This document shows positions 4,980 to 52,133 of a DNA stretch of 64,000 nucleotides, piece after piece. Made by a program: the position numbers and the translations under genes. Source of the stretch: Chloroflexia bacterium (GTDB lineage Bacteria > Chloroflexota > Chloroflexia > Thermomicrobiales > CADCWN01); assembly GCA_046328475.1 (NCBI GenBank), contig JAXLWN010000019.1, positions 12,323-76,322 on the forward strand. The letters are read 5' to 3'. The notes under the pieces are model-generated. The model had not been told where the DNA came from and did not search any database. It saw nothing but the letters and a program-made list of their open reading frames with translations. How positions within the stretch are numbered: position 1 is the first letter of the stretch; each line of letters opens with the position of its first letter.

Positions 4980-5217
4980 CCAACCCTCCCTATCAATCAA
5001 TCAAGCGAACCAACCTCACCCGAACCCCAATTGGCCGCTATCCTATCACGCAGCCCCCCCTCCCGGCTGCCACCTAATCCCCCACCACTCCCCGTCTGCC
5101 ACCACCCCCAAATCCCGATTTCATCCGGCGCACCTCGTCGCCCGGAGCACACATCTCCGGGCGATCTGCGCACGTCACCACCCGCACCGCCACACACCAC
5201 CCGCTTCCCCCAGGATC

Positions 5218-5378
5218 CCCACCCTCTCCTCATCAGGGGAGGGTCGCCGCCGCAGCGGCGGGGAGGGGTGAGAACCGTCGCACGCCACCGCGCTAAATCA
5301 TTGCCCACAATCGTCGGTTCGTGTTCTCCTCTCCCAATCGGTGGGAGAGGGTGCCGCCCGCAGGCGGCGGGGTGAGGG
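5218..5378. repeat. two REP-like palindromic units (family 1: ggagagggg hairpin plus gccgc..gcggcggggtgagg)
   Basis: Units at about 5218-5271 and 5326-5378. The same bipartite motif recurs at 3531, 13348, 15652/16879, 18127, 36575, 36664 and 38732. Confidence 0.8.
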
Positions 5379-5387
5379 CCGTCCCCT

Positions 5388-5416
5388 CTTACGACGTACG
5401 ACTTACGACTTACGAC
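5388..5416. repeat. tandem heptamer array (CTTACGA-like)
   Basis: The sequence reads cttacgacgtacgacttacgacttacgac. A related array occurs at 49185-49200. Confidence 0.8.
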
Positions 5417-5612
5417 TCCGCAATCAAGTATCATCCCCCCACGTCAGCAGCGCTGACACCGACTCCCATCCCCCGGCCACCGGGACGTAAGCGAGGTGCC
5501 CCCATGTTGGTCCATACCCGCATCAGCAATCGACCGAACGGCACCAACCGAGCATAGAGCAGGCCGGGCCATCACATCGCCCCCTGCTCGGACGCAACCG
5601 CATGGGGGAGAC

Positions 5613-9307: not shown

Positions 9308-10306
9308 TTACGAGGCATCCGGCGCGGGCACCCCAGGCTGCTGTTCGGCAGCGGGCGGCAGGGCGGCGGGCGCGGCGAGGTCGGCGGTTCCCAGTCGCCG
9401 GGCGCGGATGAGGGAGGCGGCGATGGCGATGCCGAGGATGAGGACGATGACCAGGAGCGAGATCGCGGTCGGGAGCTTGTACCACTCGCTCGCCAGCATC
9501 TTCAGGCCGACGAAGGTCAGGACGGCCGAGAGGCCGAGCTTCAGGTAGTGGAATTGGTTCACGGCCCCGGCCAGGATGAAGTAGAGCGAGCGCAAGCCGA
9601 GGATGGCGAAGACGTTCGAGGTGAAGACGATGAACGGGTCCTGGGTGACGGCGAAGATGGCCGGGATCGAGTCGACCGCGAAGATCAGGTCGGTGCTCTC
9701 GACCATCAGCAGCACCAGGAAGAGGGGTGTCGCCATCAGGACGCCCGCCTGGCGCACGAAGAAGTGCTCGCCCTGGTAGTCCCGCGTGACGCGGAAGAAG
9801 CGGCGGAAGAGGCGGATGAGCGGATTCTGCTCGGGGTGGATCTCCGAGTTGTCGTGGAAGGCCATGCGGATGCCGGTGAAGACGAGGAAGGCCCCGAAGA
9901 TGTAGATGATCCAGTGGAACTGCTTGATCAGCGCCGCGCCCGCCGCGATCATCACGCCGCGCATGACGAGCGCGCCGATGATGCCCCAGAAGAGGACGCG
10001 GTGCTGGTAGGCTGCCGGGACGGCGAAGTAGGTGAAGATCAGCACGAAGACGAAGATGTTGTCCATGCTCAGGGAGTATTCGATCACGTAGCCGGCGGCG
10101 AAGGCGAGCGCCTGCTCGCTGCCGTTGCGCAGCCAGAGGCCGATGCCGAAGAGCGTGGCGAGGCTGATCCAGACGACGGTCCAGATGCCCGCTTCCTTGA
10201 TCGAGACAGTGTGGGTTTTGCGATGGAAGACGCCGAGGTCGATGGCGAGCATCGCCAGGATGAAGAGGACGAAGCCTCCCCAGACGAGCAGGGTTTCGAC
10301 GGACAT
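9308..10306 (-). CDS. TerC/Alx-family integral membrane protein (putative Mn/metal exporter)
   Basis: 332 aa. The N-terminus MSVETLLVWGGFVLFILAMLAIDLGVF and the EYSLSMDNIFVF motif are typical of TerC family proteins. Confidence 0.85.
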   Translation of the reverse strand: MSVETLLVWGGFVLFILAMLAIDLGVFHRKTHTVSIKEAGIWTVVWISLATLFGIGLWLRNGSEQALAFAAGYVIEYSLSMDNIFVFVLIFTYFAVPAAYQHRVLFWGIIGALVMRGVMIAAGAALIKQFHWIIYIFGAFLVFTGIRMAFHDNSEIHPEQNPLIRLFRRFFRVTRDYQGEHFFVRQAGVLMATPLFLVLLMVESTDLIFAVDSIPAIFAVTQDPFIVFTSNVFAILGLRSLYFILAGAVNQFHYLKLGLSAVLTFVGLKMLASEWYKLPTAISLLVIVLILGIAIAASLIRARRLGTADLAAPAALPPAAEQQPGVPAPDAS

Positions 10307-10495: not shown

Positions 10496-10569
10496 CTGGC
10501 AGCGTAGCACGCGAGCGAAGCGCCGATCAAGGGTTGCGGGGGGCTATGGCAAGAATCGGGAAGTTTGCC

Positions 10570-10605
10570 CCGGTGGCGGCGGGAAGGTCTTCCCGCCGCC
10601 ACCGG
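10570..10605. terminator. perfect 17-bp-stem hairpin downstream of the acyl-CoA ligase gene
   Basis: ccggtggcggcgggaag-gt-cttcccgccgccaccgg, immediately 3' of the minus-strand stop at 10616. Confidence 0.5.
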
Positions 10606-10615
10606 GAGGGAAGGG

Positions 10616-12153
10616 CTACGGACGCTCGACGGCGACCATGCCGGAGTCCAGCTGCCCGCGCTCGGTGACGAGGGCGGAGCGGCGGACTTTGCCCGCCTCC
10701 GAACGGAGGAAGGAGTCGGCGAACTCGTAGGTCTTGGGGACCTTGTAGGCGGCGAGGCGTTCGCGGCAGTAGGCGTCGAGGTCGGCCACGGCGGGCGGGT
10801 CGGCGGGATCGGCGGGTTGCACGATCGCGTGGACGCGCTTGCCCCACTCGACGTCGGGGACGCCGATGACGACGACATCGCCGATGGCGGGGTGGCCGCT
10901 GAGGACGGCCTCCACCTCGGCCGGGTAGACGTTGGCACCGCCGGTGATGATCAAGTCCACCCGGCGGTCGGCGAGGAAGAGGTAGCACTCGTCGTCGAGC
11001 CAACCGAGGTCGCCCATGGTGTGAAGCCGTCGGGGGTGGACCTGGCGGGGGCGAGCCGATGTATTCGTGGGTCGGGGCGAGGGGCCTTTCAGGCGCAGGA
11101 AGATCTCGCCGACCTGCCCGGTCGGGAGGTCGTTGCCCTCGGCGTCGAGGATGCGGACGTCGGAGAAGGTGGTCCGCCCGACGCTGCCGGGGTGGGCCAG
11201 CCACTCATCGCCCCGGATGGCGGTGGCACCGATGCCCTCGGTCATCGAGCAGAGCCGTAAATTTCTCGGGGCCGATGCGAGGTCGAACCAGGCGCGCTTG
11301 AGCCAGGGTGGGCAGGGGCGGCGGTGCTGGCGATGCCCCGGAGGCTGGAAAAGTCGTGCTCGCGGACATCCGGGAGGTTGGCGATGCGCTGCATGGCGGT
11401 GGAGGCGCAGAAGATCCACTCGATGCGGTGCCGCTCGATCAGGTCCACGGCGTGGGCGGCGTCGAAGCGGTCCATGATGACCAGGGTGTGGCCGTAGAAG
11501 AGGCCGAGGTAGGCCCCGTTCCAGGAGGTGGCGTGGTAGAGGGGGCCGATGACGAGCTGGACCTGATTGGCCCCGGAGCCGAGGGCGGTCAGGAGGAGCG
11601 CGACGTTCGCCGGGTCGCCTTCCTGCCGGCCGGGGGTGACGATGATCTTGGGGCGGCCGGTGGAGCCGCCGGAGGCGAGGGCGCGGCCGGGTTCGGAGAC
11701 GTTGTCGGGGAGGGAATCGGCGGGGTTCTCGGCGGCGCGGGCGAGGTCGGCGGGGGGGAGGCTGGGATAGGCGAGGCCGGACCAGTCGGAGATGACGAGC
11801 GCGGGGTTGGCGAGGTCGAGGATGGCGTCTCGCTCGTAGGGGGGCAGGGCGGCGCGGAGGGTGAGGACCATCGCGCCGAGCTTCCAGAGGGCGAAGCTGA
11901 TCGCGACGTGCTCGGGGCTGTTGGGGAAGCCGATGACGACGGTATCGCGCTCGCCGATGCCCCGGTCGGCGAGCAGGCGCGCGACCTGGTTGGCCTGGCG
12001 CTCCAGCTCGGCCCAGGTGGTGCGGCGCTCTGCGCCGTGGAGTGGGGCGAAGATGAGCGCGGTGGCGTCGGGGCGCTCGGCGGCGAGTTGGGTGAGGCGG
12101 CGACCGTAGGAGACCGGCTGCGGGGTGGGTGCGGTGGTTGCGGACATCGGCAT
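10616..12153 (-). pseudogene. AMP-dependent synthetase/ligase (acyl-CoA synthetase family), multiply frameshifted
   Basis: The N-terminal 300 aa are in one frame (ASGGSTGRPKII P-loop motif). CPPWLKRAWFDL, SMTEGIGATAIRGDEWLAHPGSVGR and HTMGDLGWLDDECYLFLADRRVDLIITGGANVYPAEVE...AYKVPK are in another frame, with garbled stretches between. Confidence 0.8.
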
Positions 12154-20821: not shown

Positions 20822-23287
20822 ATGGATGAGCGGCAGTTGGAGGGCCTTCTCGACAGGATGACGCTGGAGGAGTGGGTGGCGCTGTTGGCGGGCGCGTCGT
20901 CTTGACGACGGTGCCGATCGAGCGGGTGGGGATCCCGGCGCTCAAGGTGACGGATGGGCCGGAACGGGGCGCGCGGCGGCGGGAGCCCGGGTCGGCGGGG
21001 TGAGGGCGGCGAGTTTCCCAGTGGGGATCGCGCTGGCGGCGAGTTGGGACACAGCGCCGGTGCGGGAGATCGGGTGGCGTCGCTGCGCAGGAGGCGCGGA
21101 CGAAGGGGGGCGCGCGTGTTGCTCGGCCCGACGGTGAATATCCACCGCTCGCCGCTGACCGGCCGCAATTTCGAGGTTATAGCAGGACCCGCACCTCTCG
21201 GCGGATGGCGGTGGCCTATATCACCGGCTTGCAGAGCGAGGGGGTCGCGGCGACGGTCAAGCATTTCGTCGGGAATGAGTCGGAATTCGAGCGGATGACG
21301 ATCAGTTCCGAGATCGACGAGCGCACCCTGCGCGAGATCTATCTGCCGCCGTTCGAGGCGGCGGTGCGCGAGGCGGGGACGTGGGCGATCATGTGCGCCT
21401 ACAACCGGCTGAACGGCACCTACGCGGGCGAGCACTCCTGGTTGATCCGCGATCTGCTCAGGCGCGAGTGGGGGTTCGACGGCGTGATGATGTCGGACTG
21501 GTTCGCGACGCACAGCACCGCGCCCGCCGCTGCGGCGGGGCTGGATCTGGAGATGCCAGGGCCGACACGGTATCGCGGCGAGCAACTGGTCGCGGCGGTC
21601 AATGCGGGCGAGGTCGGAGAGGGGGCGATCGAGGAGAGTGCGCGCCGGGTGCTGCGGCTGATCGGGCGCGTGGGGGCGTTCGCGGACCCGGCGATCCCCG
21701 AGGAGCGGGCGATCGACCGGCCGGAGCATCGCGCGCTCATCCGTCGCGCCGGGGCGGCGGGGACGGTGCTGCTGAAGAATGCGGGGATTCTGCCGCTCGA
21801 TCCGAGCGGGCTTACGTCGGTCGCGATCATCGGCCCGAACGCCAGGACAGCGCGGATTATGGGGGGCGGCAGCGCCCAGCTCAACGCGCACTACCGGGTG
21901 AGTCCCTACGAGGGGCTGGTGGCGCGGCTGGGGCCGGGGGTGCGGCTCGATTACGAGATTGGTTGCACCAACGACAAGCTGCTGCCGCTGCTGCGCGGCC
22001 CGGTGGCGGTCGAGTACTTCGCCAATCGCGACCTCGGCGGTGCGGTGGTGCAGCGCGCGGAGCAGGAGGACGCCGAGGTGATGTGGCTCGCGCCGCCTGC
22101 GGAGGGGATCGACCGGGCGAATTTCTCGGCGCGGCTGACGGCGACCTTCACGCCGGACGAGGCTGGCGAGCATCATTTTGGGCTGATCAGCGCGGGGCGG
22201 AGCCGCCTGCTGGTGGATGGGCAACTGGTGGTGGAGAACTGGGAGGGGTGGCGGCCGGGGGAGAGCTATTTCGGCTCGGGCAGCGACGAGGTGGTGGGCA
22301 CGCGCGACCTGGAGGCGGGTCGCGCGTATCGGGTGACGATCGAGTATGCCAGCATCGCGGATGGGCGGCTCGGGATTCGCGCGGTGCGCGCCGGGGTGAC
22401 CAGGCCGCTGGGGGACGAGGCGATCGAGCGGGCGGCGCGAGTGGCCGGTGGGGCGGATGTGGCGCTGGTCTTCGCCGGGCTGAACGGCGAGTGGGATAGC
22501 GAGGGGGCGGATCGCCCCCACATCGGGCTGGTGGGTCGGCAGGATGAGCTGATCGAGCGGGTGGCGGCGGCGAATCCGAGGACGGTGGTCGTGTTGCAGA
22601 GTGGCGGTCCGCTGGCGATGCCCTGGTTGGGGCGGGTCGCGGGGGTGTTGCAGGCGTGGTATCCGGGGCAGGAGGCGGGGAACGCGATCGCCGATGTGCT
22701 GTTCGGCGATGTCGAGCCGGGCGGGCGGCTGCCGCAGACCTTCCCGGTGCGATTGGAGGATAACCCGGCGTTCATCAATTATCCGGGTGACAATGGCCGG
22801 GTGCGCTATGGCGAGGGGATTTTCGTCGGGTATCGCTACTACGACAAGAAGCGGATCGCGCCGCTCTTCCCGTTCGGCTTTCGGGCTGTCGTACACGACG
22901 TTCGAGTACGGCGAATTGCGGCTGAGCACCGAGGCGCTCGAGCCGGGCGGAGTGATCACAGCATCGGTGGCGGTGACGAATAGCGGGGAGCGGGCGGGCG
23001 CGGAGGTGGTGCAGTTCTACGTGCGCGACCCGCAGGCGAAGCTGATGCGGCCGGAACGGGAGTTGCGCGGCTTCGTGAAGTTGGCGTTGCAGCCGGGAGA
23101 GACGGGAACGGCGACGGTTGCGCTCGATATGCGGGCACTGGCCTATTTTGACGACGCTCGCGCGGCGTGGGTGGCGGAGGCGGGCGAGTTCGAGGTGCTG
23201 GTAGGGTCGTCGTCGCGGGACATTCGGGGAGGGCGGGGGTGGTGGTGGGGGGGGGTGTGGGTGGAGAACGTGGGCTCGGGCGAATGA
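20822..23287 (+). pseudogene. GH3-family beta-glucosidase, multiply frameshifted at both ends
   Basis: The central 1.6 kb is intact (KHFVGNESEFERMTISSEIDERTLREIYLPPFE...). The N-terminal 400 nt is split over three frames (MTLEEWVALLAGAS* / TTVPIERVGIPALKVTDGP / VRAASFPVGIALAASWDTAPVREIG / ARVLLGPTVNIHRSPLTGRNFE). The C-terminus (FGLSYTTFEYGEL...VQFYVRDP) is shifted at about 22870. Confidence 0.85.
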
Positions 23288-27105: not shown

Positions 27106-27169
27106 GGCGAATGACGAATGACGATTGACGAATGAGGCGGGGCCTGAGTTGGGCGGGGGAGGAGGGGGA

Positions 27170-27460
27170 ATGGTTTCGTTGCAGTCCACGGTGGTGGCGG
27201 CGACCGAGCAGGTTTCGGCCGATCTGGATGGGGAGATGGCGATCCTCAATTTGAGCAACGGGGTCTATTACGGGCTCAATCCGGTCGGGGCACGGGTTTG
27301 GGAGCTGGTGCAGGCACCGGGGACGGTCGCCGCGCTCTGCGAGCAATTGCTGGCGGAGTTCGACGTGGAGCGGGGGCGCTGCGAGCAGGAAGTGCTGGCG
27401 CTGCTGGCCGATCTGGAGGGCGCGGGGTTGGTCGAGGTGCGCGATGGGCAGGCTGCGTAA
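27170..27460 (+). CDS. PqqD-family protein: lasso-peptide B1 (RiPP recognition element)
   Basis: 96 aa: VSADLDGEMAILNLSNGVYYGLNPVGARVWELV...LCEQLLAEFDV. ATG 27170 follows GGAGGAGGGGGA. It overlaps the B2 start by 17 nt. Confidence 0.85.
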   Translation: MVSLQSTVVAATEQVSADLDGEMAILNLSNGVYYGLNPVGARVWELVQAPGTVAALCEQLLAEFDVERGRCEQEVLALLADLEGAGLVEVRDGQAA

Positions 27461-27881
27461 GCTGCTCGCGTTGTCGGGTGCCGAGCGACGGCTGCTGATC
27501 CGGGCGCTGCCGCTGGTGGTGCTGGTGCGGGTGGCGCTGTGGGTGCTGCCGTTTCGCAGGCTGCGGCGCTGGCAGGGGCGCTGGGCAACCCCGGCGGCGA
27601 GCGTGCGGGGCGACGAGGCGATGATCCCGCCGGTGGTGCGCGCGGTGACGCTCGCCAGCCGGGCGGTGCCGGGGGCGTCCTGTTTGACGCAGGCGCTGGC
27701 GGCGCAGGTGCTGCTGGCGCGACGCGGTTGCCCGAGCGAGCTGCGGCTGGGCGTCGGGCGCGGGGCGGATCGCCGCTTCGCGGCCCATGCGTGGCTCGAA
27801 TATGAGGGGCGGCCGATCATCGGGGAGTTCGAGGCCGGGCGCTTCACCCCGCTGCCGACATTGGCCGGGGAGCGGCGGTGA
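27444..27881 (+). CDS. lasso-peptide B2 leader peptidase (transglutaminase-like Cys protease)
   Basis: 145 aa with CLTQALAAQVLLARRG (catalytic Cys context) and HAWLEYEGRPI (His), typical of the lasso B2 family. Confidence 0.85.
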   Translation: MGRLRKLLALSGAERRLLIRALPLVVLVRVALWVLPFRRLRRWQGRWATPAASVRGDEAMIPPVVRAVTLASRAVPGASCLTQALAAQVLLARRGCPSELRLGVGRGADRRFAAHAWLEYEGRPIIGEFEAGRFTPLPTLAGERR

Positions 27882-29749
27882 GTCGCCTCGCCGCGCTGTT
27901 CCGCCGCGACGGACGATCGGTCGATCCCGATGAGCTGGCCCGGATGCTCGCCGCGCAGGAGCATCCGGGCCAGGTTGGCGTGGCGACGTGGGTCTCCGGG
28001 GCGGTCGGGCTCGGCGAGCGGCTGCGGCCGACCACGGGGCCGGGGCAGGGCACCATCGCCGGGCTGCCGGGTGGCGATGCGCTGGCAATCGCGGCGGAGG
28101 TGCGGCTCGACAATCGCGACGAACTGATCGCGGGGCTGGGGCTGCGCGGGCGCGAGAGCGAGATCGCCGATGCCGAGATTATCCTGCACGCCTATCGCGC
28201 GTGGGGCGAGGGGTGCTCGGCGCGGTTGATCGGCGATTTCGCGTTTGCGCTGTGGGACGGCGGGCGGCAGACGCTCTTTTGCGCCAGGGATCCGCTGGGG
28301 GTGCGGCAACTCCACTACGCCGCGAATGACCATTTCTGCGCGGTGGCAACGTCGCTGCCGGGGGTGCTGGCCCTGTCGGCGGTTTCGCGGCGGCTGGATG
28401 AGGGAAAGGTTGCGGAGTTCCTGACGCCCGGTCCGGAGGATCTGGCGCGCACGTTTTTTCGCGACATCGCGCGCCTGCCAGCGGGACACGCGCTGGTTGT
28501 GACCGCCGAGCGGGTACGCGTCGCGCCCTACTGGTCGTTCGCGGGCCAGCGCGAGGTGCGTTACCGGCGCGACGAGGAGTATGGCGAGGCGTTCCGCGCG
28601 CTCTTCGGCGAGGCGGTGCGCTGCCGGTTGCGGAGCGTCGCACCGGTGGGGGCGATGCTGAGCGGCGGGCTCGATTCTTCGTCGGTCGTCTGCGTGGCGC
28701 GGCAGGAGCGCGCGGCGGACGCGAACGAGCTCTTGCCGACGTTCAGCCTGATTTTCCCGCAGACGCCAGCCGCCGATGAGCGTGAGTATGCGCAGGCGGT
28801 GATCGATGGCGGGGGGCTGGAGCCGCATTTCGTCGATGGTGACGCGGTCAGTCCGCTGGTCGGGATCGACCGCCTGCTGGCGCTGGCGGGGCAGCCCTAC
28901 TGGGGGCCGTCGCTCTGCCTCCAATGGGAGACCTACGCGGCGGCGCGGCGGCGCGGCCTGGGGGTGCTGCTCGATGGCACCGGGGGCGACCAGGTGGTCT
29001 CGTTCGGGCTGGAGTTGCTGACGGAACTGGCGATGCGCGGTCGCTGGGTGGCGCTCGGGCGGGAGATCGCGGGATTGCGGCGCAATTTCGGCTTCGGGGC
29101 GGGCTATCTCCTGCGGGGCTACGCGATCAGCCCCCTGATCCCGGAGCCGCTGCGCCGGGTGCGGCGGCGCTGGCAGCGCGGCGCGATGCAGCAGCAGGCG
29201 ACGGGGTTCATCGCCGCGCCGTTCGCCGCGCGGCTCGGCGAGCGTCGGCAGCCCGCGCCGGGGAGGCGCGCGGCGCGGGACCGGCACGCGGCGACCTTGC
29301 CGCAGCAGCTCCTGCGCGACGTTTTCGACCAGGCGGCGGCGACGTTCGGGATCGAGCCGCGCTATCCGTTCCTCGACCGGCGGGTGGTGGAGTTCTGCCT
29401 GGGGCTGCCGGCCGAGCAGAAGCTGGCGCGGGGGATGACGCGCGCGATCGTCCGCCGCGCCCTCGGCGACCTGCTGCCACCGGCGGTGCGCGACCGGACG
29501 AGCAAGGCGACGCCCGCGCGGAGCCTGATGCGCAACCTGCTCGCCCACGAGCGCGAACGCCTCGACGCGGCGATCCTCGGGGAGCCGCCGCCGGTGGTGC
29601 GGGAATATATCGACGTGGACGCGCTCCGCGCGGCGTACCTGGCCTATCGCGAGCGCGGGGCGGGGGAAGCGACGTGGCTCGAGGTCGCGCGAATCTGGAA
29701 GACGGCGGTGCTGGCGATCTGGTTGCGGGGAGACACATTCGCGTGGTGA
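27878..29749 (+). CDS. lasso-peptide cyclase C (asparagine-synthetase B-like)
   Basis: 623 aa: GDFAFALWDGGRQTLFCARDPLGVRQLHY and the PP-loop MLSGGLDSSSVV. The GTG start overlaps the B2 stop (GTGA). Confidence 0.9.
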   Translation: MSRLAALFRRDGRSVDPDELARMLAAQEHPGQVGVATWVSGAVGLGERLRPTTGPGQGTIAGLPGGDALAIAAEVRLDNRDELIAGLGLRGRESEIADAEIILHAYRAWGEGCSARLIGDFAFALWDGGRQTLFCARDPLGVRQLHYAANDHFCAVATSLPGVLALSAVSRRLDEGKVAEFLTPGPEDLARTFFRDIARLPAGHALVVTAERVRVAPYWSFAGQREVRYRRDEEYGEAFRALFGEAVRCRLRSVAPVGAMLSGGLDSSSVVCVARQERAADANELLPTFSLIFPQTPAADEREYAQAVIDGGGLEPHFVDGDAVSPLVGIDRLLALAGQPYWGPSLCLQWETYAAARRRGLGVLLDGTGGDQVVSFGLELLTELAMRGRWVALGREIAGLRRNFGFGAGYLLRGYAISPLIPEPLRRVRRRWQRGAMQQQATGFIAAPFAARLGERRQPAPGRRAARDRHAATLPQQLLRDVFDQAAATFGIEPRYPFLDRRVVEFCLGLPAEQKLARGMTRAIVRRALGDLLPPAVRDRTSKATPARSLMRNLLAHERERLDAAILGEPPPVVREYIDVDALRAAYLAYRERGAGEATWLEVARIWKTAVLAIWLRGDTFAW

Positions 29750-29771
29750 TGCGGCATAGAAGTCCAGCTAC

Positions 29772-29800
29772 TTGACACACCATGGGCGCATCCTGATAAT
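29772..29800 (+). promoter_or_regulatory. candidate strong sigma-70 promoter for the precursor genes
   Basis: Perfect TTGACA (29772-77), a 17-nt spacer, then GATAAT (29795-29800). It sits in the AT-richer cyclase/precursor intergenic region, about 75 nt upstream of the A1 start. Confidence 0.55.
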
Positions 29801-29874
29801 ACGTACATTGTCCATTGCCTCCATTTCAGCCCGCGACCTGCCCCTTGTGTGTACTCAAGAAGGAGCAGCGAAAC

Positions 29875-30048
29875 GTGAAGACGCCGCGCCAGGGGTCGGT
29901 GACGTTGGTGCCGGGCGAGGGTGCCCGGGCGAAGCAGATCTGGGAAACGCCGCAACTGACGACGCACGGCACGGTGGGGAAGATCACCGCCGGGGGTGGG
30001 GGCCAGGATCCTGACACCGGCGGCGGCAACAGCGCACTCACCAATTGA
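29875..30048 (+). CDS. lasso peptide precursor A1
   Basis: GTG lies 9 nt after AGGAG. The 57-aa product is (M)KTPRQGSVTLVPGEGARAKQIWETPQLTTHGTVGKITA|GGGGQDPDTGGGNSALTN. The leader has W-17, P-14, L-12, G-8 and T-2. Confidence 0.8.
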   Translation: MKTPRQGSVTLVPGEGARAKQIWETPQLTTHGTVGKITAGGGGQDPDTGGGNSALTN

Positions 30049-30088
30049 TCGACGACTGGTGCTGACACCGAGACAAGGAGAGGAACCG

Positions 30089-30211
30089 ATGGCAAAGCGC
30101 ACCTGGACAACCCCGAAGCTACAGGTCCACGGCACGGTGGCGGAGATTACGGCTGGGGGTGGTGGCCAGACTCCAGACACCGGCGGTGGGAACAGCGGGC
30201 TCCTCCAGTAA
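30089..30211 (+). CDS. lasso peptide precursor A2
   Basis: ATG follows AAGGAGAGG. The 40-aa product is MAKRTWTTPKLQVHGTVAEITA|GGGGQTPDTGGGNSGLLQ. Confidence 0.85.
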   Translation: MAKRTWTTPKLQVHGTVAEITAGGGGQTPDTGGGNSGLLQ

Positions 30212-30284
30212 TCGGCGGGCGGCTGTGTCATGCAGTTGGCCGCATCCTGGGGCTCCTGCTAACGCGTGGGCGACGAGAGAGGCG

Positions 30285-30746
30285 ATGGCGATGCGCACCT
30301 GGGATACCCCGCAGTTGCATGTTCACGGTACCGTGGGACAGATCACCGCCGGGGGCGGCGGGAACTCGCCCGATACGGGGGGCGGGAACAGCGCGCTGGT
30401 GGCTGTGCCATCGGACCGGGCGCTGAAGGAGCGCGTGGTTCCGGTGGACCAGCGGGCGATCTTGCAGCGTGTGGCCGAATTGCCGATCGCGAGCTGGAAC
30501 TACACGGCGCAGCCGCCGTCGATCCGGCACATCGGGCCGATGGCGCAGGATTTCGCGGCGGCGTTCGGGGTCGGCGAGAGCGATAAGCAGATCAACCTGA
30601 TCGATGCCAACGGGGTGGCGCTGGCGGCGATCCAGGCGCTGGCCGCGCAGGTGCAGGCGCAGCAGGTTGAACTCGAACAATTGCGCGCCGAACTGGCGGC
30701 GGTGCGCCGCAGGACCGCCACCGGGCCGGATGACGTCGTCGCCTGA
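30285..30746 (+). CDS. lasso peptide precursor A3 fused to a peptidase-S74-like intramolecular chaperone/self-cleaving domain
   Basis: ATG follows GAGAGAGG. The product is MAMRTWDTPQLHVHGTVGQITA|GGGGNSPDTGGGNSALVAVP-SDRALKERVVPVD...WNY...HIGPMAQDF...LIDANGVALAAIQALAAQVQAQQVELEQL. S43-x4-K48 matches the S74 Ser/Lys dyad spacing. Confidence 0.75.
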   Translation: MAMRTWDTPQLHVHGTVGQITAGGGGNSPDTGGGNSALVAVPSDRALKERVVPVDQRAILQRVAELPIASWNYTAQPPSIRHIGPMAQDFAAAFGVGESDKQINLIDANGVALAAIQALAAQVQAQQVELEQLRAELAAVRRRTATGPDDVVA

Positions 30747-30770
30747 GCGGCGCGCGACGCAGGCTCTGCG

Positions 30771-31679
30771 ATGAGCGCCCTACCGTTCAGCTATCGAGCT
30801 TATGGCCTGACGATCCGCTCCGATCTCGCGCTGCCGGAACTCGCATCCGGCGGCGAGGGGGTCGGGGCGGATGTCGTTGTGCGCTTCGGTGCGGTGGCCG
30901 AGGAGGAGGCGGTCCCGCGCGTCGGGAATACGACGGTGCGGATCGTGCCGGAGGGGATGCAACTGGCCTATCCGGAGGTCGGGCGCTTCCTGGTGCGCGA
31001 GGGGCGCGAGGTCGTGGTCGCGCTCAGGCCCGGTGCGGACGAGCGGGATGTGCGCCTGAGTTTGCTCGGGCCGGTGCTGGCGGTGTTGCTTCACCAGCGC
31101 GGGTTGCTGGTGCTGCACGGGAGCGCGGTGGCGCTGGGTGACGGGGCGGTCGGGCTGCTGGGGCACGCCGGGGCGGGAAAATCGACGCTGGCGGGGGCGT
31201 TCCTGGCGGCGGGCTACCGGCCGCTGGCGGACGATCTGACGGTGGTCGATCTCACAGGGCCGACGCCGACCGCGCTCCCGGGGTTCCCGCAATTGAAGCT
31301 CTGGCCGCAATCGGTGACGGCGCTTGGCGGCAACCCGGAGACGCTGCCGGCGCTGGGGGCGCGGGTGGAAAAACGCGCCCGGCGGCTGGCAGCGGGCTTC
31401 GCGCCAGAGCCGCTGCCGCTGCGACGGCTGTACGTGATCGCGGATGGCGAGCGGGTGGCGAGCGAGCCGCTGGCGGGGCAGGAGGCGTTGGTCGAGTTGG
31501 TGCGGCACTCGTTTTGCGCGGTGCTGCTGCCCGCCGGGGGGCAGGGCGAGCATTTCCGGCAGTGCGCGGCGCTGCTGCGGATGGTGCCGCTGAGCCGCCT
31601 CGCGCGGCCGAAGGAGTTCGCGGCGCTCCCGGCGATCATCCGGGCGATCGCGGGGGAGGCGGGCGATGGCGACCGCTAG
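30771..31679 (+). CDS. HPr-kinase-related kinase (lasso precursor kinase-like)
   Basis: 302 aa. LVLHGSAVALGDGAVGLLGHAGAGKSTLAGAF (P-loop) resembles the HprK C-terminal fold found in lasso clusters. Confidence 0.7.
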   Translation: MSALPFSYRAYGLTIRSDLALPELASGGEGVGADVVVRFGAVAEEEAVPRVGNTTVRIVPEGMQLAYPEVGRFLVREGREVVVALRPGADERDVRLSLLGPVLAVLLHQRGLLVLHGSAVALGDGAVGLLGHAGAGKSTLAGAFLAAGYRPLADDLTVVDLTGPTPTALPGFPQLKLWPQSVTALGGNPETLPALGARVEKRARRLAAGFAPEPLPLRRLYVIADGERVASEPLAGQEALVELVRHSFCAVLLPAGGQGEHFRQCAALLRMVPLSRLARPKEFAALPAIIRAIAGEAGDGDR

Positions 31680-32898
31680 CGCGGCCCACCCCGCCATGCC
31701 AGACGCCGCCGAGGGGTTGCTGATCTGGTGCGCGCGGCCGATCCGCGATGCGGCGGTGGCGGCGCACATCGGCGAGTATGCGGCGGCGATCGAGGATTGG
31801 GAGGCGCTCGAGCGGCTGGCGTGGCGGCACGGCGTGCTGCCGCTGCTGGTGCGCGGCCTGACAGCCCTGCCGCCGGGCGCGGTGCCGCCCGAGGCGCTGG
31901 CGCAACTGCGGGCGCAGTATCTGGAGCGGTCGCAGCGCGCGATGGTCATGACCGGGGAATTGCTCGGGGTGCTGGCCGCGCTGGAGGAGGCGGGGATCGC
32001 GGCGATCCCCTACAAGGGGCCGGTGCTGGCGGCGCAGGCGCACGGGAATGTCTCGCTGCGACAGTTCCGCGATCTCGACATCCTGGTCGCGCCCGGGGAG
32101 GTGGATCGCGCGGAGGCGGTGTTGGCGGCGCGCGGCTACCGCCATGTCGCCCCGCTGACGGCGCTGGAGCGGCGGCTGATCCGACTGGGGGGGAGCGAAT
32201 TCGAGCTGGCGCGGGGCGACGGGACGCTGGTGGAGTTGCACTGGCAACTCTTCGGGCACTATTTCGCGCTGCCGCTCGACCTGGGGGCGCTGCGGGCGCG
32301 GCTGGTGCCGCTGCCGCTGGGCGGGCGAATGGTGCGGACCTTCGCGCTGGAGGATCTGCTGCTGATCCTCTGCGCGCACGGCGGCGACCACAGCTGGGAG
32401 CGGCTGGAGTGGATCGCGGACGTGGCGGCGCTGGTGGCGCGGCAGCCGGATCTCGATTGGGACGCGCTGATCGCGCGGGCGCGGCGGGCGGGGGGGCTGC
32501 GGATGGTCCTGCTGGGGCTGCAGCTGGCGAGCGATCTGCTCGACGCGCCGGTGCCAGATCGGGTGCTGATGCTGGCGCGGGCCGATGGCAGGGTCGGGGC
32601 GCTGGCGGCGGCGATGCGCGCGGCGCTCTTCGATGAGGCGCTGGCGATCCGGCGGTCGGAGCGGCCGATCTACGTCTTCAACCTGGCGATGCGGGAGCGG
32701 CGGCGCGACCGGGTGCATTACTGGCTCAGCCGGGCGTTCGTGCCGACGGTGGAGGATGCGGCATTCGTCGCCCTGCCCGCGCGGCTGCTCCCGCTCTATT
32801 TCCTGCTCAGGCCGTTGCGGCTGATCGCCCTGTTCTGCCTGCGAATCGCCCGACGCGGCCGGGCGACGGGGCGGACATCCGCGCCGACCGGCCCATGA
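31666..32898 (+). CDS. nucleotidyltransferase-family protein (NTP_transf_5-like)
   Basis: 410 aa: IPYKGPVLAAQAHGNVSLRQFRDLDILVAPGEVDRAEAVLAARGY...ELHW. It overlaps the kinase gene by 14 nt. Confidence 0.7.
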   Translation: MATASAAHPAMPDAAEGLLIWCARPIRDAAVAAHIGEYAAAIEDWEALERLAWRHGVLPLLVRGLTALPPGAVPPEALAQLRAQYLERSQRAMVMTGELLGVLAALEEAGIAAIPYKGPVLAAQAHGNVSLRQFRDLDILVAPGEVDRAEAVLAARGYRHVAPLTALERRLIRLGGSEFELARGDGTLVELHWQLFGHYFALPLDLGALRARLVPLPLGGRMVRTFALEDLLLILCAHGGDHSWERLEWIADVAALVARQPDLDWDALIARARRAGGLRMVLLGLQLASDLLDAPVPDRVLMLARADGRVGALAAAMRAALFDEALAIRRSERPIYVFNLAMRERRRDRVHYWLSRAFVPTVEDAAFVALPARLLPLYFLLRPLRLIALFCLRIARRGRATGRTSAPTGP

Positions 32899-34697
32899 TG
32901 CTCGACCTGGGACGCGCGCACCTCGCCTGGCTGGCGACGCTGGCGCGACGACAAGCGCTGGTGGCGCTCGGGCTGCTCTGCGCGGCGGGGCTGACCGAGG
33001 GGACGGGGCTGCTGCTGCTGCTACCACTGCTGCAACTGGTCGGGATCGACGTGGGGCAGGGTGCGCCCGCGCGCCTGGCGCGCGTGGTCGCCGCGGGCTT
33101 CGCGCGGGTGGGAGCGCGACCGACGCTGGAACTCGTGCTGCCGCTCTATGTCGCAATCGTGGGGGTGCAGGCGCTGCTCGTGCGACGGCAGGCGGGCGCG
33201 CAGATCGCGCTGCAATACGCGCTCGTTGACCGGCTGCGCGGGCGATTGTACCGGGCGATCGCGGGGGCGAACTGGCCGTTCCTGTCGCGCCAGCGGATAG
33301 CCGAACTGACGCACGCGCTGACCTCCGAGAGCGACCGGATCGGGGCGGCGACGCAATATCTCGGCCAGTTGTGCGCGGCGGGGCTGGTGGCGGCGGTCTA
33401 CCTGCTGCTCGCGGTGCAGATCTCGGCGGCGCTGACGGGGCTGATCGGGCTGTGCGGGCTGGCGCTGCTGTTCGCGCAGCGGCAACAGCGGCGGCGGGTG
33501 GGGGAGGCGGGCGAGGCGCTGACGCAGTCGTTGCGTCGCTGGCACAGCGCGGCGAGCGAGCTGCTGGGCGGGCTGAAGCTGATCAAGAGCACCGGGTCCG
33601 AGGCGCGGAGCATCGCGCACGCCGACGAACGGATCCGGGCGGTGAGCGCGGCGCACGGCGCGGTGGTGCGGGGGCAGGCGGCGGCGAAGAGCTGGCTCGA
33701 TATCGGCGCGGTGGCCCTGCTGAGCGGGATCGTCTATGTCGCGGTGCGGGGGCTGCACCTGTCGGCGGCGGGGCTGCTGCTGCTGATCTTCCTCTTCGCC
33801 AGGGTGCTGCCCCGGCTGACCGGCGCGATCCAGAGCTACCACAATTACATCGCGCTGCTGCCGGCGGTCGGCGCGGTGCGGGAGCAGCTGGCGCGGTGCG
33901 AGGCGGAGGCGGAGGCACCGAAGGATGCCACCGCGACGTTCGCGCTGCGATCGGCGGTGGCGTTCGAGGGGGTGGAATTCGGGTATGCACCTGGGCAGAC
34001 GGTGGTGGGGCCGCTCGATCTGGTCATCCCGGCGGGGCGGACGACGGCGATCGTGGGGCCGTCGGGCGCGGGGAAGAGCACGCTGGCGGATTTGCTGCTC
34101 GGGTTGCTGGAGCCGACGGCGGGGGCGATCCGCGTCGATGGGCAACCGCTGCTGTCGCAGCAGCGCGGGGCGTGGCAGCGACAGATCGGCTATGTGCCGC
34201 AGGAGGCGCTGCTCTTCCACGATTCGCTGCGGGCGAATGTCTGCTGGGACCGGCCGGAGGCGTCGGAGGGGGAGATCGCTGCGGCGCTGGGCCAGGCGGC
34301 GGCCGAGTTCGCCTGGCTGCTGCCCGAAGGGCTGGACACCGTCGTCGGGGAGCGCGGGACGCGGCTTTCGGGCGGGGAGCGGCAGCGGGTGGCGCTGGCC
34401 CGCGCGCTGCTGCGCAACCCGGCGCTGCTGATCCTGGACGAGGCGACCAGCAATCTCGATGTCGAGAGCGAGGGGCGCATCCTGGCGACGCTGGAGGCGC
34501 TGCACCAGCGGGTGACGATTCTGCTGATCACGCACCGGCTGGCGACGGCCCGGCTGGCCGACACGATCCATGTGCTGCAAGCGGGGCGAATCGTGCAATC
34601 GGGCGATTGGGAAGCCCTGATCACCGACCGAACGGGACAATTCCACGCGCTCTGGCAGACGGCCAGCGTCGAGCAGGTGCCGCCGAGGGTGGGGTGA
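32895..34697 (+). CDS. ABC exporter, fused permease/ATPase (lasso D, McjD-like)
   Basis: 600 aa with 6 TM helices, Walker A GPSGAGKST, the signature LSGGERQRVALARAL and Walker B LLILDEATS. It has an ATGA overlap with the upstream gene. Confidence 0.9.
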   Translation: MMLDLGRAHLAWLATLARRQALVALGLLCAAGLTEGTGLLLLLPLLQLVGIDVGQGAPARLARVVAAGFARVGARPTLELVLPLYVAIVGVQALLVRRQAGAQIALQYALVDRLRGRLYRAIAGANWPFLSRQRIAELTHALTSESDRIGAATQYLGQLCAAGLVAAVYLLLAVQISAALTGLIGLCGLALLFAQRQQRRRVGEAGEALTQSLRRWHSAASELLGGLKLIKSTGSEARSIAHADERIRAVSAAHGAVVRGQAAAKSWLDIGAVALLSGIVYVAVRGLHLSAAGLLLLIFLFARVLPRLTGAIQSYHNYIALLPAVGAVREQLARCEAEAEAPKDATATFALRSAVAFEGVEFGYAPGQTVVGPLDLVIPAGRTTAIVGPSGAGKSTLADLLLGLLEPTAGAIRVDGQPLLSQQRGAWQRQIGYVPQEALLFHDSLRANVCWDRPEASEGEIAAALGQAAAEFAWLLPEGLDTVVGERGTRLSGGERQRVALARALLRNPALLILDEATSNLDVESEGRILATLEALHQRVTILLITHRLATARLADTIHVLQAGRIVQSGDWEALITDRTGQFHALWQTASVEQVPPRVG

Positions 34698-34851
34698 GCG
34701 CGACAGCGCGCGTGTCGGGAAAATCCCCACAAAAGTATCGCTGGCGTCCCGACTGCGATCTGAGGCCCCAGTGTCTAGACTTTGACAGTGGGGGGATGAG
34801 CGGATCGTCGCCGACACCGCCCGGTGGGCGGCGACTGGACGGGATTGAGGA

Positions 34852-49269: not shown

Positions 49270-50236
49270 GTGGCATTCTTCGATTCCTCCCGCTCGACCG
49301 TCTCCAGACCTATCAGCCGCCGCGCGACGAGCCGACCGATTTTGATGCGTTCTGGCGCGACACGCTCGCCGAGGCCGAGAGTTTTCCGCTCGCCGCGCGC
49401 TTCGAGGCGGCCGATTTCGGGCTGCGGGCGCTCGAAGGTTCGATGTGACCTTCAACGGCTACGGCGGGCAGCCGATCAAGGGCGGCTGCTGCTGCCGCGC
49501 GAGCGGTCGGGGCCCGCTCCCCTGCGTCGTGCAGTATCTCGGCTACGGCGGCGGGCGCGGCTTCCCGCTGAATCACCTCGTCTGGAGCAGCGCGGGCTTC
49601 GCCCACTTCATCATGGATACGCGCGGGCAGGGGAGCGCGTGGTCGCACGGCGACACACCCGACCCGGAGCCGGAGGGGACCAACCCGCACCACCCCGGCT
49701 TTATGACGCGCGGCGTGCTGCGCCCGCAGACCTACTACTATCGCCGCGTCTTCACCGACGCGGTGCGCGCTGTGGCCGCCGCGTGCTCGCACCCGGCGGT
49801 CGATGCGACCGGATCGCCGCTGCGGGCGGCAGCCAGGGGGCGGCATCACGCTCGCGGTCACGGCCTCGTCCCCTACCGACATCAAGGTCGCTATACCCGA
49901 CGTGCCGGCCTTTGCCACTACCGCCGCGCCACCGAGATCACCAACGACAATCCCTACGGCGAGTTGACGCGCTACTGCACCGTCCACCGCGACAAGATCG
50001 ACACCATCTTCGACGCTCGCCTACTTCGACGGCGTCAACTTCGCGGCCCGCGCCAAAGCCCAGGCGCTCTTCTCGGTCGGCCTGATGGACACCATCGCCG
50101 CCCTCGACCCGTCTACGCCGCTTACAACCACTACGCCGGGCCGAAGGAGATCAAGATCTGGCGCTACAACAACCACGAAGGCGGCGGCGCGCACCAGACG
50201 GTGGAGCGGGAGAGGTTCTTGCAAGAAGTGCTGTAA
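49270..50236 (+). pseudogene. CE7 acetyl-xylan esterase / cephalosporin-C deacetylase, multiply frameshifted
   Basis: Fragments lie in three frames: (M)AFFD; LPLDRLQTYQPPRDEPTDFDAFWRDTLAEAE; FNGYGGQPIKG...LPCVVQYLGYGGGRGF...FIMDTRGQGS...PGFMTRG; IAAAGGSQG; and a C-terminal [13 protein letters not shown]. Confidence 0.8.
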
Positions 50237-50361
50237 CGAGTATTGGGTAATCCCAGTCGGGAGGGCATTTCTGCCAGAATTGTCCATCCCCGGGCGGCAA
50301 CGCGCTGCGATGCTCACCGATAGAATGGGCAGCATGAAGTTAACATCAACCAGGTGAGAGG

Positions 50362-52133
50362 ATGAGTGTGCAGCAGGCTATCTTCAAGCAGGTTGGCTAT
50401 TCGCGCTGGGACTCCTGCATGAGATCGAAATCGGGAATATTGGTCTGCCTGACATCCAACGTCCATTCGTTTGGAATGCGACGAAAAAGTCCGCGATCTG
50501 TTTGATTCAATGTATCGCGGCTTTCCCGTTGGCTACTTCCTCTTCTGGGCCAATACTGCCGCGAAGGGTACCCATAGTATTGGAACGGATCAAAAGATCC
50601 AGCCGCGAACCTACTCATTGTCGATGGACAGCAGCGACTTACATCACTATATGCTGTGGTCTTCGGTAAGCCTGTCCTCAACGATGCCTACCAGCCAATC
50701 AAGATCGAGATTGCATTCCGCCCCCGCGATGGGCACTTCGAAGTTGCCAATGCAGCTACCAAGAAGGATCCTGAGTATATTCCCAATATCTCTGCATTAT
50801 GGGCTCCTGGAAGTAATAGTTACACCCTCATTGATGCATTCCTGAGCAAACTGGGTACGAGTCAGCCTCACCAGCCACTTACACCGGCGGACAGGGCTCA
50901 ACTCAGTAGCAATATGGCTCGTCTCATTGCGCTCCAGTCGTACCCTTTCACGGCGCTTGAAATCGCGGCGGCGGCGGACGAAGAGCAGGTTGCCGACATC
51001 TTCGTCCGAATTAACAGCGAAGGCGTTAAACTGAACCAGGCAGATTTCATCCTGACCTTACTCTCTGTCTTCTGGGATCAAGGTCGGTCCGACATGGAGC
51101 AGTTCTGCCGCCGCGCGGGAAATCCGCCAAAACAAGGCAGCGGCCCGTCGCCATTCAACCATTTCATCGAGCCTAGCCCCGATCAACTGCTACGCGTTTC
51201 CATCGCGCTCGCCTTCTACCGTGCCCGGCTCCAAAGTGTCTATCAAGTTCTGCGCGGCAAAGATGTCAGTACAGGATCTTATTCACCAACCCGGCGCGAT
51301 CAGCAGTTCGCTCAGCTCCGCGAAACCCAAGCGAAAGTTCTGGACCTCACGAACTGGCATTCGTTCTTCGAGTGTCTCGTCGCGGCGGGATTTCGCGGGA
51401 AGGCGATGATCTCCTCACAGAACACATTGCTGTACGCCTATGCTTGCTATTTGATTGGCAAGTGCGAATACAAAGTACCAGGGCAGCAACTTCAGAAGGT
51501 AATCGGGCGCTGGTTCTTTGCGGCACTGCTTACGGGACACTATACCAACTCGCCCGAGACGGCCATGGAAGCCGATCTCAACCGACTCAAAGGGCTTGCC
51601 AACGCTCAAGCCTTCGTCGACGCTCTTGAGTCGATGATTGCCACCCTCCTCACTGGCGACTTCTGGACCATCACACTCCCGAACGAGTTGGAGACATCCT
51701 CTGCGCAGAGTCCTTACTTCCTGGCCTACATCGCCGCACAGAATTTACTCGATGCGCCCGTTCTTTTCTCGCAGCAGAAGATCAGCGCCTTGCTCGACCC
51801 CCTGATCAAGCCAAAGAAAAAGCCGCTCGAAAATCATCATCTCTTTCCAAGTGCCTGGCTCAAAGAGAACGGAATTACCAAGGTACCGACCATTAATCAG
51901 GTAGCAAATCTGGCATTGCTGGATTGGCCGTCCAACATCGCGATCAGTGACGCCGCCCAAAAACCTACGTCCCGCAACTCAGTCAGAAGTTCAACGCAGC
52001 GACCTTGGCCAGGATGCACGATCTCCATGCTCTCCCCAACGGTTGGGAGAATCTGTCCTACGATGTATTCCTCCAACAGCGTCGAATCCTCATGGCAAAC
52101 GTGATCCGTCGAGGATTCGAAACGCTCGCCTGA
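50362..52133 (+). pseudogene. GmrSD-like (DUF262 + DUF1524/HNH-like) type IV restriction-type endonuclease, at least 4 frameshifts, on an AT-richer island
   Basis: The N-terminus is in shifting frames: LLHEIEIGNIGLPDIQRPFVWNATK / VRDLFDSMYRGFPVGYFLFW / (LIVDGQQRLTSLYAV)VFGKPVL. The C-terminus has HHLFPSAWL...NQVANLALLDW, then a shift to ...LHALPNGWENLSYDVFLQQRRILMANVIRRGFETLA. Confidence 0.75.

Follow-up and report, generated by a model that had tools for sequence, protein, structure and literature searches.

Lasso-type precursor peptides without a C-terminal serine, one of them fused to a Peptidase_S74 domain, in a kinase-type gene cluster from Chloroflexota

Why does a gene for a lasso-type precursor peptide run on into a Peptidase_S74 domain, and what would the kinase encoded beside it phosphorylate when none of the precursors ends in serine? 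These questions are raised by nine co-directional open reading frames (ORFs) at positions 27170-34697, on the + strand, of a 64,000-nucleotide stretch of DNA (contig JAXLWN010000019.1 of assembly GCA_046328475.1, positions 12,323-76,322). The whole stretch is called the window here, and its numbering is used for all coordinates below. The gene order is B1-B2-C-A1-A2-A3-K-N-D, where A1, A2 and A3 encode the precursors, and the translations have zero internal stops. Judging from sequence comparisons, we consider it likely that this is a functional lasso peptide cluster of the kinase/N type, represented by paeninodin and pseudomycoidin, carried as an accessory insertion in a Thermomicrobiales genome. 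Clusters of this kind are ordinary in themselves. What appears to be new is the presence, in a kinase/N-type lasso cluster, of precursors that lack the C-terminal Ser, one of which is fused to Peptidase_S74 (hereafter S74).

After the starts of A1, A2 and A3 were refined, a GGAG-type ribosome-binding site was found ahead of each. The A1 leader comprises 39 amino acids, ends in ...WETPQLTTHGTVGKITA and is followed by the core GGGGQDPDTGGGNSALTN, and A2 consists of the leader MAKRTWTTPKLQVHGTVAEITA and the core GGGGQTPDTGGGNSGLLQ. In A3, the core GGGGNSPDTGGGNSALVAVP runs straight into SDRALKERV.... All three leaders read WxTPxLxxHGTVxxITA, which fits the pattern YxxPxLx3Gx5Tx with Thr at position -2. 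The first 36 residues of A3, spanning leader and core, aligned to A1 and A2 without a gap. We assigned domains by Pfam and NCBIfam scans, with curated cut-offs where quoted. A2 matched the leader family NF033521 (lasso_leader_L3) with 19.1 bits (cut-off 19) and lasso_cyano with 29 bits; A1 matched lasso_cyano at E=5e-4. A first-pass annotation of this DNA had described three small ORFs with lasso-type leaders. This is borne out by the leader motif, by Gly1 and Asp8 of the cores, by the A2 match at the cut-off and by conservation in an independent metagenome contig (L007, JGI 3300073979; 79-85% related) that carries the same nine genes. More than one precursor gene per lasso cluster has been reported before.

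In the six cores available (A1-A3 and their three L007 orthologues), GGGG-x-x-P-D-x-GGGNS is invariant. Because the cores have Gly1 and Asp8, a Gly1-Asp8 macrolactam ring of 8 residues is predicted. Calculated for the dehydrated peptides, [M+H]+ is 1556.66 for A1, 1554.71 for A2 and 1665.78 for A3 if it is cut before Ser43. A promoter-like site between C and A1, TTGACA-17-GATAAT, agrees with the consensus at 11 of 12 positions and is the sole such site in 11.7 kb (0.4 in shuffled sequences). Both of its hexamers are invariant in L007, where the surrounding spacer has diverged. The A1-A2, A2-A3 and A3-K spacers, folded in a survey for attenuators, were no better than their shuffles, and no convincing terminator was seen within the cluster. 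Rfam and tRNA scans of the window returned nothing.

From Ser43 on, A3 matched Peptidase_S74 (PF13884), a self-cleaving intramolecular chaperone (ICA) domain, with 40.9 bits (cut-off 22). The junction reads ...VAVP/S43-D-R-A-L-K48; the domain opens with a Ser that is followed, five residues on, by Lys, and no change at Ser43, Asp44 or Lys48 occurs among 32 fused homologues. In the eukaryotic protein MyRF, an S74 domain cuts between P586 and S587, and Ser587 and Lys592 are both essential, being equivalent to S911 and K916 of endoNF, the endosialidase of phage K1F (PMC8326128). By analogy, the S74 domain of A3 would cut before Ser43 and free a core ending in ...VAVP. In the precursors without the domain (A1 and A2, and likewise the L007 orthologues of the two), the C-terminus lies no more than 1-3 residues from the A3 VP/S junction, which fits S74 as a removable extension. 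C-terminal fusions of lasso cores to proteins (astexin-1 or pandonodin with GFP or a leucine zipper) are still processed by the B and C enzymes (PMC8498205). Since such engineered fusions are tolerated, it is plausible that A3 is processed with S74 attached.

A3 is not the only precursor of this architecture. Our search with A3 found >2,000 relatives. Among the best 120, 61 had ~125-190 amino acids, with a lasso-type leader, a core of 12-21 residues and SDRxxK followed by S74. Including those from a search of representatives, we collected 79 leader-core-S74 sequences, 44 of which had Gly1 and 57 an acidic residue at positions 7-9. In an alignment of 32 fused sequences, Pro, Gly and Thr(-2) of the leader and Ser, Asp and Lys of S74 are invariant, and Asp8 of the core is present in at least 90%. 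As the invariant residues lie in the leader as well as in S74, both halves are under selection. In nine separate loci, which represent at least four phyla, a fused precursor adjoins lasso genes: the window, L007, L003 (Capsulimonas corticalis, Armatimonadota), L005, L010 (a Blastocatellia metagenome-assembled genome, MAG), L013 (a Gaiellales MAG), L090, L091 and L092. C, B1 and K-like genes are common to the nine; eight have B2 and six have N. In this count the K-like match of L092 is weak (E=3e-6) and C of L091 was assigned from gene size and position, not from a sequence match. In Capsulimonas corticalis, with the order C-A-K-B1-B2-N, the fused precursor was the sole leader-bearing ORF found in a motif scan. 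The annotated examples that we saw were named 'tail fiber domain-containing protein' or 'hypothetical protein'. The wider S74 subfamily comprises 19,384 clusters at 50% identity (E<=1e-3), mostly on long fibre-like proteins.

Some variants of the fused precursors were seen along the way. In L089, two tandem leader-core(Asp8)-S74 genes (8001-8821) adjoin genes for IMS-family and Pol III alpha-like DNA polymerases and a lytic transglycosylase gene. The leader-like S74 genes of L017 and L011 have cores without an acidic residue. Protein P0125 (382 amino acids) has five tandem units of leader, core and SD(R/K)xxK stub, followed by one complete S74 domain; it may be a multi-core precursor or a product of partial duplications. 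In L092, two 2OG-Fe(II) oxygenase genes flank the fused precursor (3757-5522), which suggests hydroxylated products. L005 has a second, S74-less precursor (10520-10678) that ends in Ser (...DLTR/KGGNILGRLGVS) and lacks the acidic residue, Asp or Glu, with which a lactam could form.

The same S74 subfamily was also found behind leaders of other types. In cyanobacteria (Calothrix, Nostoc, Aulosira; L016, L037, L041, L052, L056, L075), it stands behind double-glycine-type leaders (...EELSDDELASCVGG), often in tandem. Further fusions with non-lasso leaders include P0071, P0109, P0080 and P0082. In P0076, P0096 and P0101, S74 follows Flp-pilin-like peptides, and P0027 and P0040 have a third leader type before it, ...DPAKRDFLK...SFSMDGLSVYEAHAQ.

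The other genes of the cluster are those of the kinase/N type. B1 matched PqqD (PF05402) with 71 bits and NF033536 (lasso_PqqD_Bac) with 74.8 bits, slightly below the cut-off of 80. Its longest ORF starts at TTG 27125, and the start taken is ATG 27170. B2 matched NF033537 (lasso_biosyn_B2) with 100 bits (cut-off 33) and Transglut_core3 (PF13471) with 82 bits, with the Cys (CLTQAL) and His (HAWLE) motifs. C matched the lasso isopeptide-bond cyclase family NF033535 with 567.5 bits (cut-off 525) and Asn_synthase (PF00733) with 180 bits, and has the PP-loop SGGLDSS. As a single query against species-representative genomes, C recovered one distant relative, at locus L002, and an alignment query was then used. 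N, between K and D and overlapping both, matched NTP_transf_5 (PF14907) with 205.6 bits. D has the ABC_tran (PF00005) and ABC_membrane (PF00664) domains. Its closest structures were ABCB-type exporters (ABCB1, ABCB4, ABCB19, Atm1, ABCB10 and BmrA types), and McjD was absent from the best 60 PDB matches.

The first-pass annotation had named PqqD, B2, cyclase, HPrK-like, NTP_transf_5 and ABC families, and each was recovered by the tools used here. The model check that it had proposed gave significant matches for B1, B2 and C, the latter two above their curated cut-offs. Its B2 and C motifs were found in the translations, and re-reading all the junctions from the sequence gave exact agreement with the nine co-directional genes and overlaps that it had described: 17 nucleotides between B1 and B2, GTGA common to the B2 stop and the C start, 14 nucleotides (ATG...TAG) between K and N, and ATGA common to the N stop and the D start. 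Its description of D as McjD-like has to be loosened to a generic ABCB-type half-transporter.

K was harder to place. By itself it gave weak matches to HprK_rel_A (34 bits) and PF07475 (E=0.013), and a PDB sequence search with K alone returned only P-loop noise. Its P-loop motif is GHAGAGKST. A profile built from seven K homologues from related clusters matched the HPr kinase structures 3tqf (E=9e-6), 1ko7 and 1jb1 (range 9e-6 to 1e-4), and all seven homologues matched PF07475. His116, GKST136-139 (with Lys137) and Asp154-Asp155 are invariant in their alignment, and His-Lys-Asp-Asp is the signature reported for lasso-tailoring kinases (PMC9266682). These matches support the assignment of K as an HPr-kinase-like kinase carrying the lasso-kinase signature, by comparison with the published motif rather than by alignment with PadeK, ThcoK or PsmK.

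What would K and N act on? Kinases of the paeninodin/pseudomycoidin type phosphorylate a C-terminal Ser on its side chain, and this Ser is strictly conserved (PMC9266682); N adds a hexose to the phosphate in pseudomycoidin (PMC6993621). Pseudomycoidin that lacked the K/N modification had the properties of an unthreaded branched cycle, and the phospho-hexose was proposed in that work to lock a tail that has no plug. Since no precursor of the window ends in Ser, our best guess is that the target is the tail residue Ser14, the Ser of GGGNS, which is invariant in all six cores of the window/L007 clade. Of 49 fused cores with Asp8 or Glu8, 40 carry a Ser within positions 12-14, and the tail is free of F/Y/W/R/K/H in 31. 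We also considered phosphorylation of the junction residue Ser43 as a stand-in for the C-terminal Ser. This would block the S74 nucleophile, and we ranked it below the internal Ser.

The first-pass annotation had regarded the combination with three precursors and a fusion as unusual. The pairing of K with N is known and defines the paeninodin/pseudomycoidin type (PMC6993621, PMC9266682). The S74 fusion is indeed unusual, and so is the absence of a terminal Ser.

The pathway could then run as follows. The dedicated promoter would drive the three precursor genes. B1 would bind the leader at WxTPxLxxHGTVxxITA, B2 would cut after the Thr-Ala at its end, and C would join the Gly1 amine to the Asp8 side chain. 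In A3, the S74 domain would trimerise and cut itself off before Ser43, freeing the core that ends in ...VAVP. Phosphorylation and then the addition of a further group, which in pseudomycoidin is a hexose, are the most likely tasks of K and N, and the modified Ser14 might provide the bulky plug that is otherwise missing from the glycine-rich tail. The products, expected to be glycine-rich peptides of ~1.55-1.67 kDa with an 8-residue ring and a tail of 10-12 residues, would be exported by D. Tentatively, and aware that it may well prove wrong, we extend this scheme beyond the window. S74 may be a natural self-removing C-terminal 'follower', with the S74 Ser taking the place of the terminal Ser in kinase-type clusters of several phyla and K and N modifying a tail Ser at positions 12-14 as the plug. 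Given the fusions behind other leaders, S74 might even be a general maturation device for exported peptides.

Several observations weigh against this interpretation. None of the precursors has a C-terminal Ser: A1 ends in ...LTN, A2 in ...LLQ and A3 in Pro after the predicted cleavage, and Glu and Ala are the last residues of the L007 orthologues. As a C-terminal Ser is the residue on which characterised kinases act, A1 and A2 might not be substrates of K at all. In contrast, the K homologue at locus L002 (E=4e-42) adjoins a canonical precursor ending in ...PVSS. The tails have no classical bulky plugs, so that the products might be unthreaded branched cycles. S74 normally follows a triple beta-helix and cuts only once trimerised, whereas only a 42-residue peptide precedes it in A3. 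An AlphaFold2 monomer model of A3, made from the 32-sequence alignment, had a mean confidence score (pLDDT) of 64 and a long helix at residues 105-145, and was too poor for a fold search. Poor monomer models are to be expected for an obligate intertwined trimer. Searched against the PDB, a profile of the fused family had no match at E<=0.01. Not every leader-core-S74 gene has lasso enzymes as neighbours: none lies within 8 kb in L089 or within 10 kb in L017, and in L011 none was seen in the ~8 kb upstream and 1 kb downstream examined. Finally, C and N of the closest public record are frameshifted by one-base homopolymer differences. These points leave room for four other explanations.

Firstly, the Gly1-Asp8 macrolactams might be branched-cyclic instead of threaded, at least without modification by K and N. 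We think this unlikely, but it has to be taken seriously. The tails TGGGNSALTN, TGGGNSGLLQ and TGGGNSALVAVP contain no F/Y/W/R/K/H, and none of their residues is bulky enough for an 8-residue ring to hold; the same poverty in the 31 related cores counted above, and the behaviour of pseudomycoidin purified without the K/N modifications, point the same way. However, the conserved tail Ser together with K and N could supply the plug, as in the pathway that we favour.

Secondly, S74 might stay on A3, giving a trimeric protein with three lasso or lactam caps, or it might have another job, such as immunity, solubility or partner recruitment. Lasso-protein fusions are viable (PMC8498205), S74 trimerises through a C-terminal coiled coil (PMC8326128), and the long helix at 105-145 in the A3 model would suit such an assembly. 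Nevertheless, the catalytic Ser and Lys are invariant in the 32 fused homologues, although a mere scaffold would not need them. A1 and A2 end 1-3 residues from the predicted cut, and D is an ABCB-type pump for small substrates. We therefore regard retention of the domain as improbable, and self-removal of S74 as the better account of A3.

Thirdly, the cluster might be a decaying or silent relic whose intactness in the window is an accident of assembly. The first-pass annotation had read the intact cluster among frameshifted neighbours as a sign of selection. The cluster is intact in the window, as it had said, but the contrast proved weak. A nearly identical public record, JAXLWR010000015.1 (GCA_046328415.1, locus L001), encodes the same A3 protein and is 99.0% identical to the window over 20.5 kb (20268-40730), with 142 mismatches and 41 gap openings; the differences are patchy at 20-21 kb and 34-36 kb. 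In this record, C is broken by a one-base homopolymer difference at 29257-29260 (GGG vs GGGG), and N by another at 31865-31867 (CCCC vs CCC). Conversely, the GH3 glycosidase gene is frameshifted in the window at 21000-21184, its N-terminus lying across three frames, and is intact there in L001. Since C and N are broken in one record and GH3 in the other, homopolymer differences run both ways, and the contrast says little about selection. The frameshifts in these assemblies may be sequencing noise. The Fn3-like C-terminal part of the GH3 gene (22952-23284) is in another frame in both records, so the gene is split over 21000-23284.

Better evidence comes from L007. Its nine genes are intact and of essentially the same lengths, and the flanking genes are also the same. 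At ~20% divergence (62-85% amino-acid identity to the window), every cluster gene has a ratio of nonsynonymous to synonymous substitution rates (dN/dS) of 0.14-0.44, including 0.39 for A1 and 0.14 for A2. Comparatively, the adjacent response regulator has 0.03 and the sigma factor 0.10. Purifying selection and synteny support function better than the frameshift contrast does. The relic explanation can appeal to the frameshifts of the nearest record, to the frameshifted neighbours in the window and to the absence of the cluster from related Thermomicrobiales at the same site. Yet both frameshifts in C and N are single-base differences in homopolymer length, typical of sequencing error, and the independent contig L007 keeps all nine genes and the promoter. 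It seems quite improbable to us that the cluster is a relic.

The downstream sigma-70 gene is 71-78% identical to genes of Thermomicrobiales MAGs. Two of them, L096 and L097, have the histidine kinase, response regulator and sigma genes directly adjacent and no lasso genes at this site; upstream, L097 shares the luciferase-like and RidA genes of the window. Because the response regulator and sigma genes adjoin each other there, the cluster is an accessory insertion of 7.6 kb, bounded by the stop of the response regulator gene at 27105 and the start of the sigma gene at 34852. Upstream of the sigma gene, a GGGGATTCCCCCACA-like element stays to the right of the insertion (compared regions: window 27106-27169 and 34698-34851, L096 ~9640-9760, L097 ~9640-9764). 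A lone CGAATGA x4 array at 27108-27135 lies exactly at the left junction.

Lastly, it is scarcely credible that A3 is an unrelated phage-tail-fibre-like gene that lies here by chance, with only A1 and A2 as precursors: PF13884 is typically a domain of phage tail fibres and tailspikes and most subfamily members are long fibre-like proteins, but the leader and core of A3 align gap-free to A1 and A2 over 36 residues, eight more loci, spread over several phyla, have the fusion beside lasso enzymes, and in Capsulimonas the fused ORF is the only candidate precursor in the motif scan.

Table 1. Features of the lasso-type cluster, in window coordinates
Feature	Position	Strand	Supporting evidence
B1, PqqD-type recognition element of a peptide that is made by ribosomes and modified after translation (RiPP), 96 amino acids	27170..27460	+	PF05402; AGGAGG upstream of ATG 27170
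B2, transglutaminase-like leader peptidase, 145 amino acids	27444..27881	+	NF033537, PF13471; Cys and His motifs
C, Asn-synthetase-like lasso macrolactam cyclase, 623 amino acids	27878..29749	+	NF033535, PF00733; SGGLDSS PP-loop
Promoter-like site, TTGACA-17-GATAAT	29772..29800	+	Between C and A1
A1 precursor, 57 amino acids, GTG start	29875..30048	+	AAGGAG ribosome-binding site; lasso_cyano match; L007 orthologue
A2 precursor, 40 amino acids	30089..30211	+	lasso_leader_L3, lasso_cyano; L007 orthologue
A3 precursor, whole, 153 amino acids	30285..30746	+	Leader, core and Peptidase_S74
A3 leader, 22 amino acids, MAMRTWDTPQLHVHGTVGQITA	30285..30350	+	Pro, Gly and Thr(-2) unchanged across 32 fused homologues
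A3 core, 20 amino acids, GGGGNSPDTGGGNSALVAVP	30351..30410	+	Predicted Gly1-Asp8 ring
A3 Peptidase_S74 domain, from Ser43 of SDRALK to the long end helix	30411..30746	+	PF13884
K, HPr-kinase-like P-loop kinase, 302 amino acids	30771..31679	+	H-K-D-D motif; profile match to HPr kinase structures
N, NTP_transf_5 protein, 410 amino acids, counterpart of PsmN	31666..32898	+	PF14907
D, ABC exporter half-transporter with transmembrane and nucleotide-binding domains, 600 amino acids	32895..34697	+	PF00005, PF00664

Elsewhere in the window, many intergenic regions contain paired tandem heptamer arrays of 4-5 copies (26305-26336/26390-26419, 42838-42868/42923-42952, 55406-55437/55479-55508, 59013-59047/59072-59101, 41706-41737/41789-41814 and 24395-24426/24471-24503). 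The arms of the one pair that was checked (TGAGTCG x4.6 and CTCACGA x4.3) are reverse complements, and a long hairpin could form. A patch of low GC content at 50001-52000 (0.55 vs ~0.69) overlaps an ORF (50656-52104) with a weak, sub-threshold match to the GmrSD N-terminal domain, and may be foreign. On the - strand, 53106-55325 encodes a protein of 739 amino acids with an N-terminal Ser/Thr protein kinase domain and a C-terminal class-A beta-lactamase-like domain.

Our full-text literature search found nothing on lasso or other RiPP precursors fused to S74 or to an intramolecular chaperone; most subscription journals lay outside its coverage, and absence from it is not proof. Such precursors are not mentioned in a 2026 review of interlocked peptides either. 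The leader-core-S74 architecture has probably been missed by standard lasso-mining tools, we guess because the gene is ~150 codons long. If our interpretation is true, an S74 follower would be a new maturation step in RiPP biology and would offer lasso engineering a natural traceless C-terminal tag. It would also reopen the question of what HPr-kinase-like enzymes phosphorylate in the absence of a C-terminal Ser. The named species Capsulimonas corticalis, with a 7.6-Mb genome, carries a sister cluster (AP025739, ~3.237-3.257 Mb) and is presumably in culture, in which case the idea is directly testable.

Among known systems, the cluster is most like that of pseudomycoidin, psmCAKB1B2ND of Bacillus pseudomycoides DSM 12442 (PMC6993621). 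Both have split B1 and B2, C, K, N and D and a plug-poor tail, and the Capsulimonas order C-A-K-B1-B2-N matches the psm order C-A-K-B1-B2-N-D (PMC6993621). However, the psm cluster has one short precursor, PsmA, whose last residue is Ser (PMC6993621), whereas the window has three precursors, none ending in Ser and one fused to S74. The hosts and arrangements also differ: pseudomycoidin comes from Firmicutes, with the psm gene order (PMC6993621), and the window from Chloroflexota, with the order B1-B2-C-A1-A2-A3-K-N-D. The paeninodin cluster, padeACKB1B2D of Paenibacillus dendritiformis C454, has a strict C-terminal Ser as the kinase target, which the precursors of the window lack (PMC9266682). 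Apart from N, its set of genes is the same. It has neither N nor a fused domain (PMC9266682), and the cluster of the window has both.

For the fused domain, the closest precedents are the S74 domains of MyRF and endoNF (PMC8326128). A3 has the same spacing from Ser to Lys, Pro before the Ser as in MyRF, and a predicted C-terminal helix. In MyRF and endoNF a long triple beta-helix lies ahead of S74, which is shed after this part has folded (PMC8326128); in A3 a 42-residue leader and core take its place. The lasso-protein fusions reported previously (PMC8498205) were laboratory constructs with linkers, whereas A3 is a natural, linkerless fusion whose C-terminal domain is predicted to remove itself.

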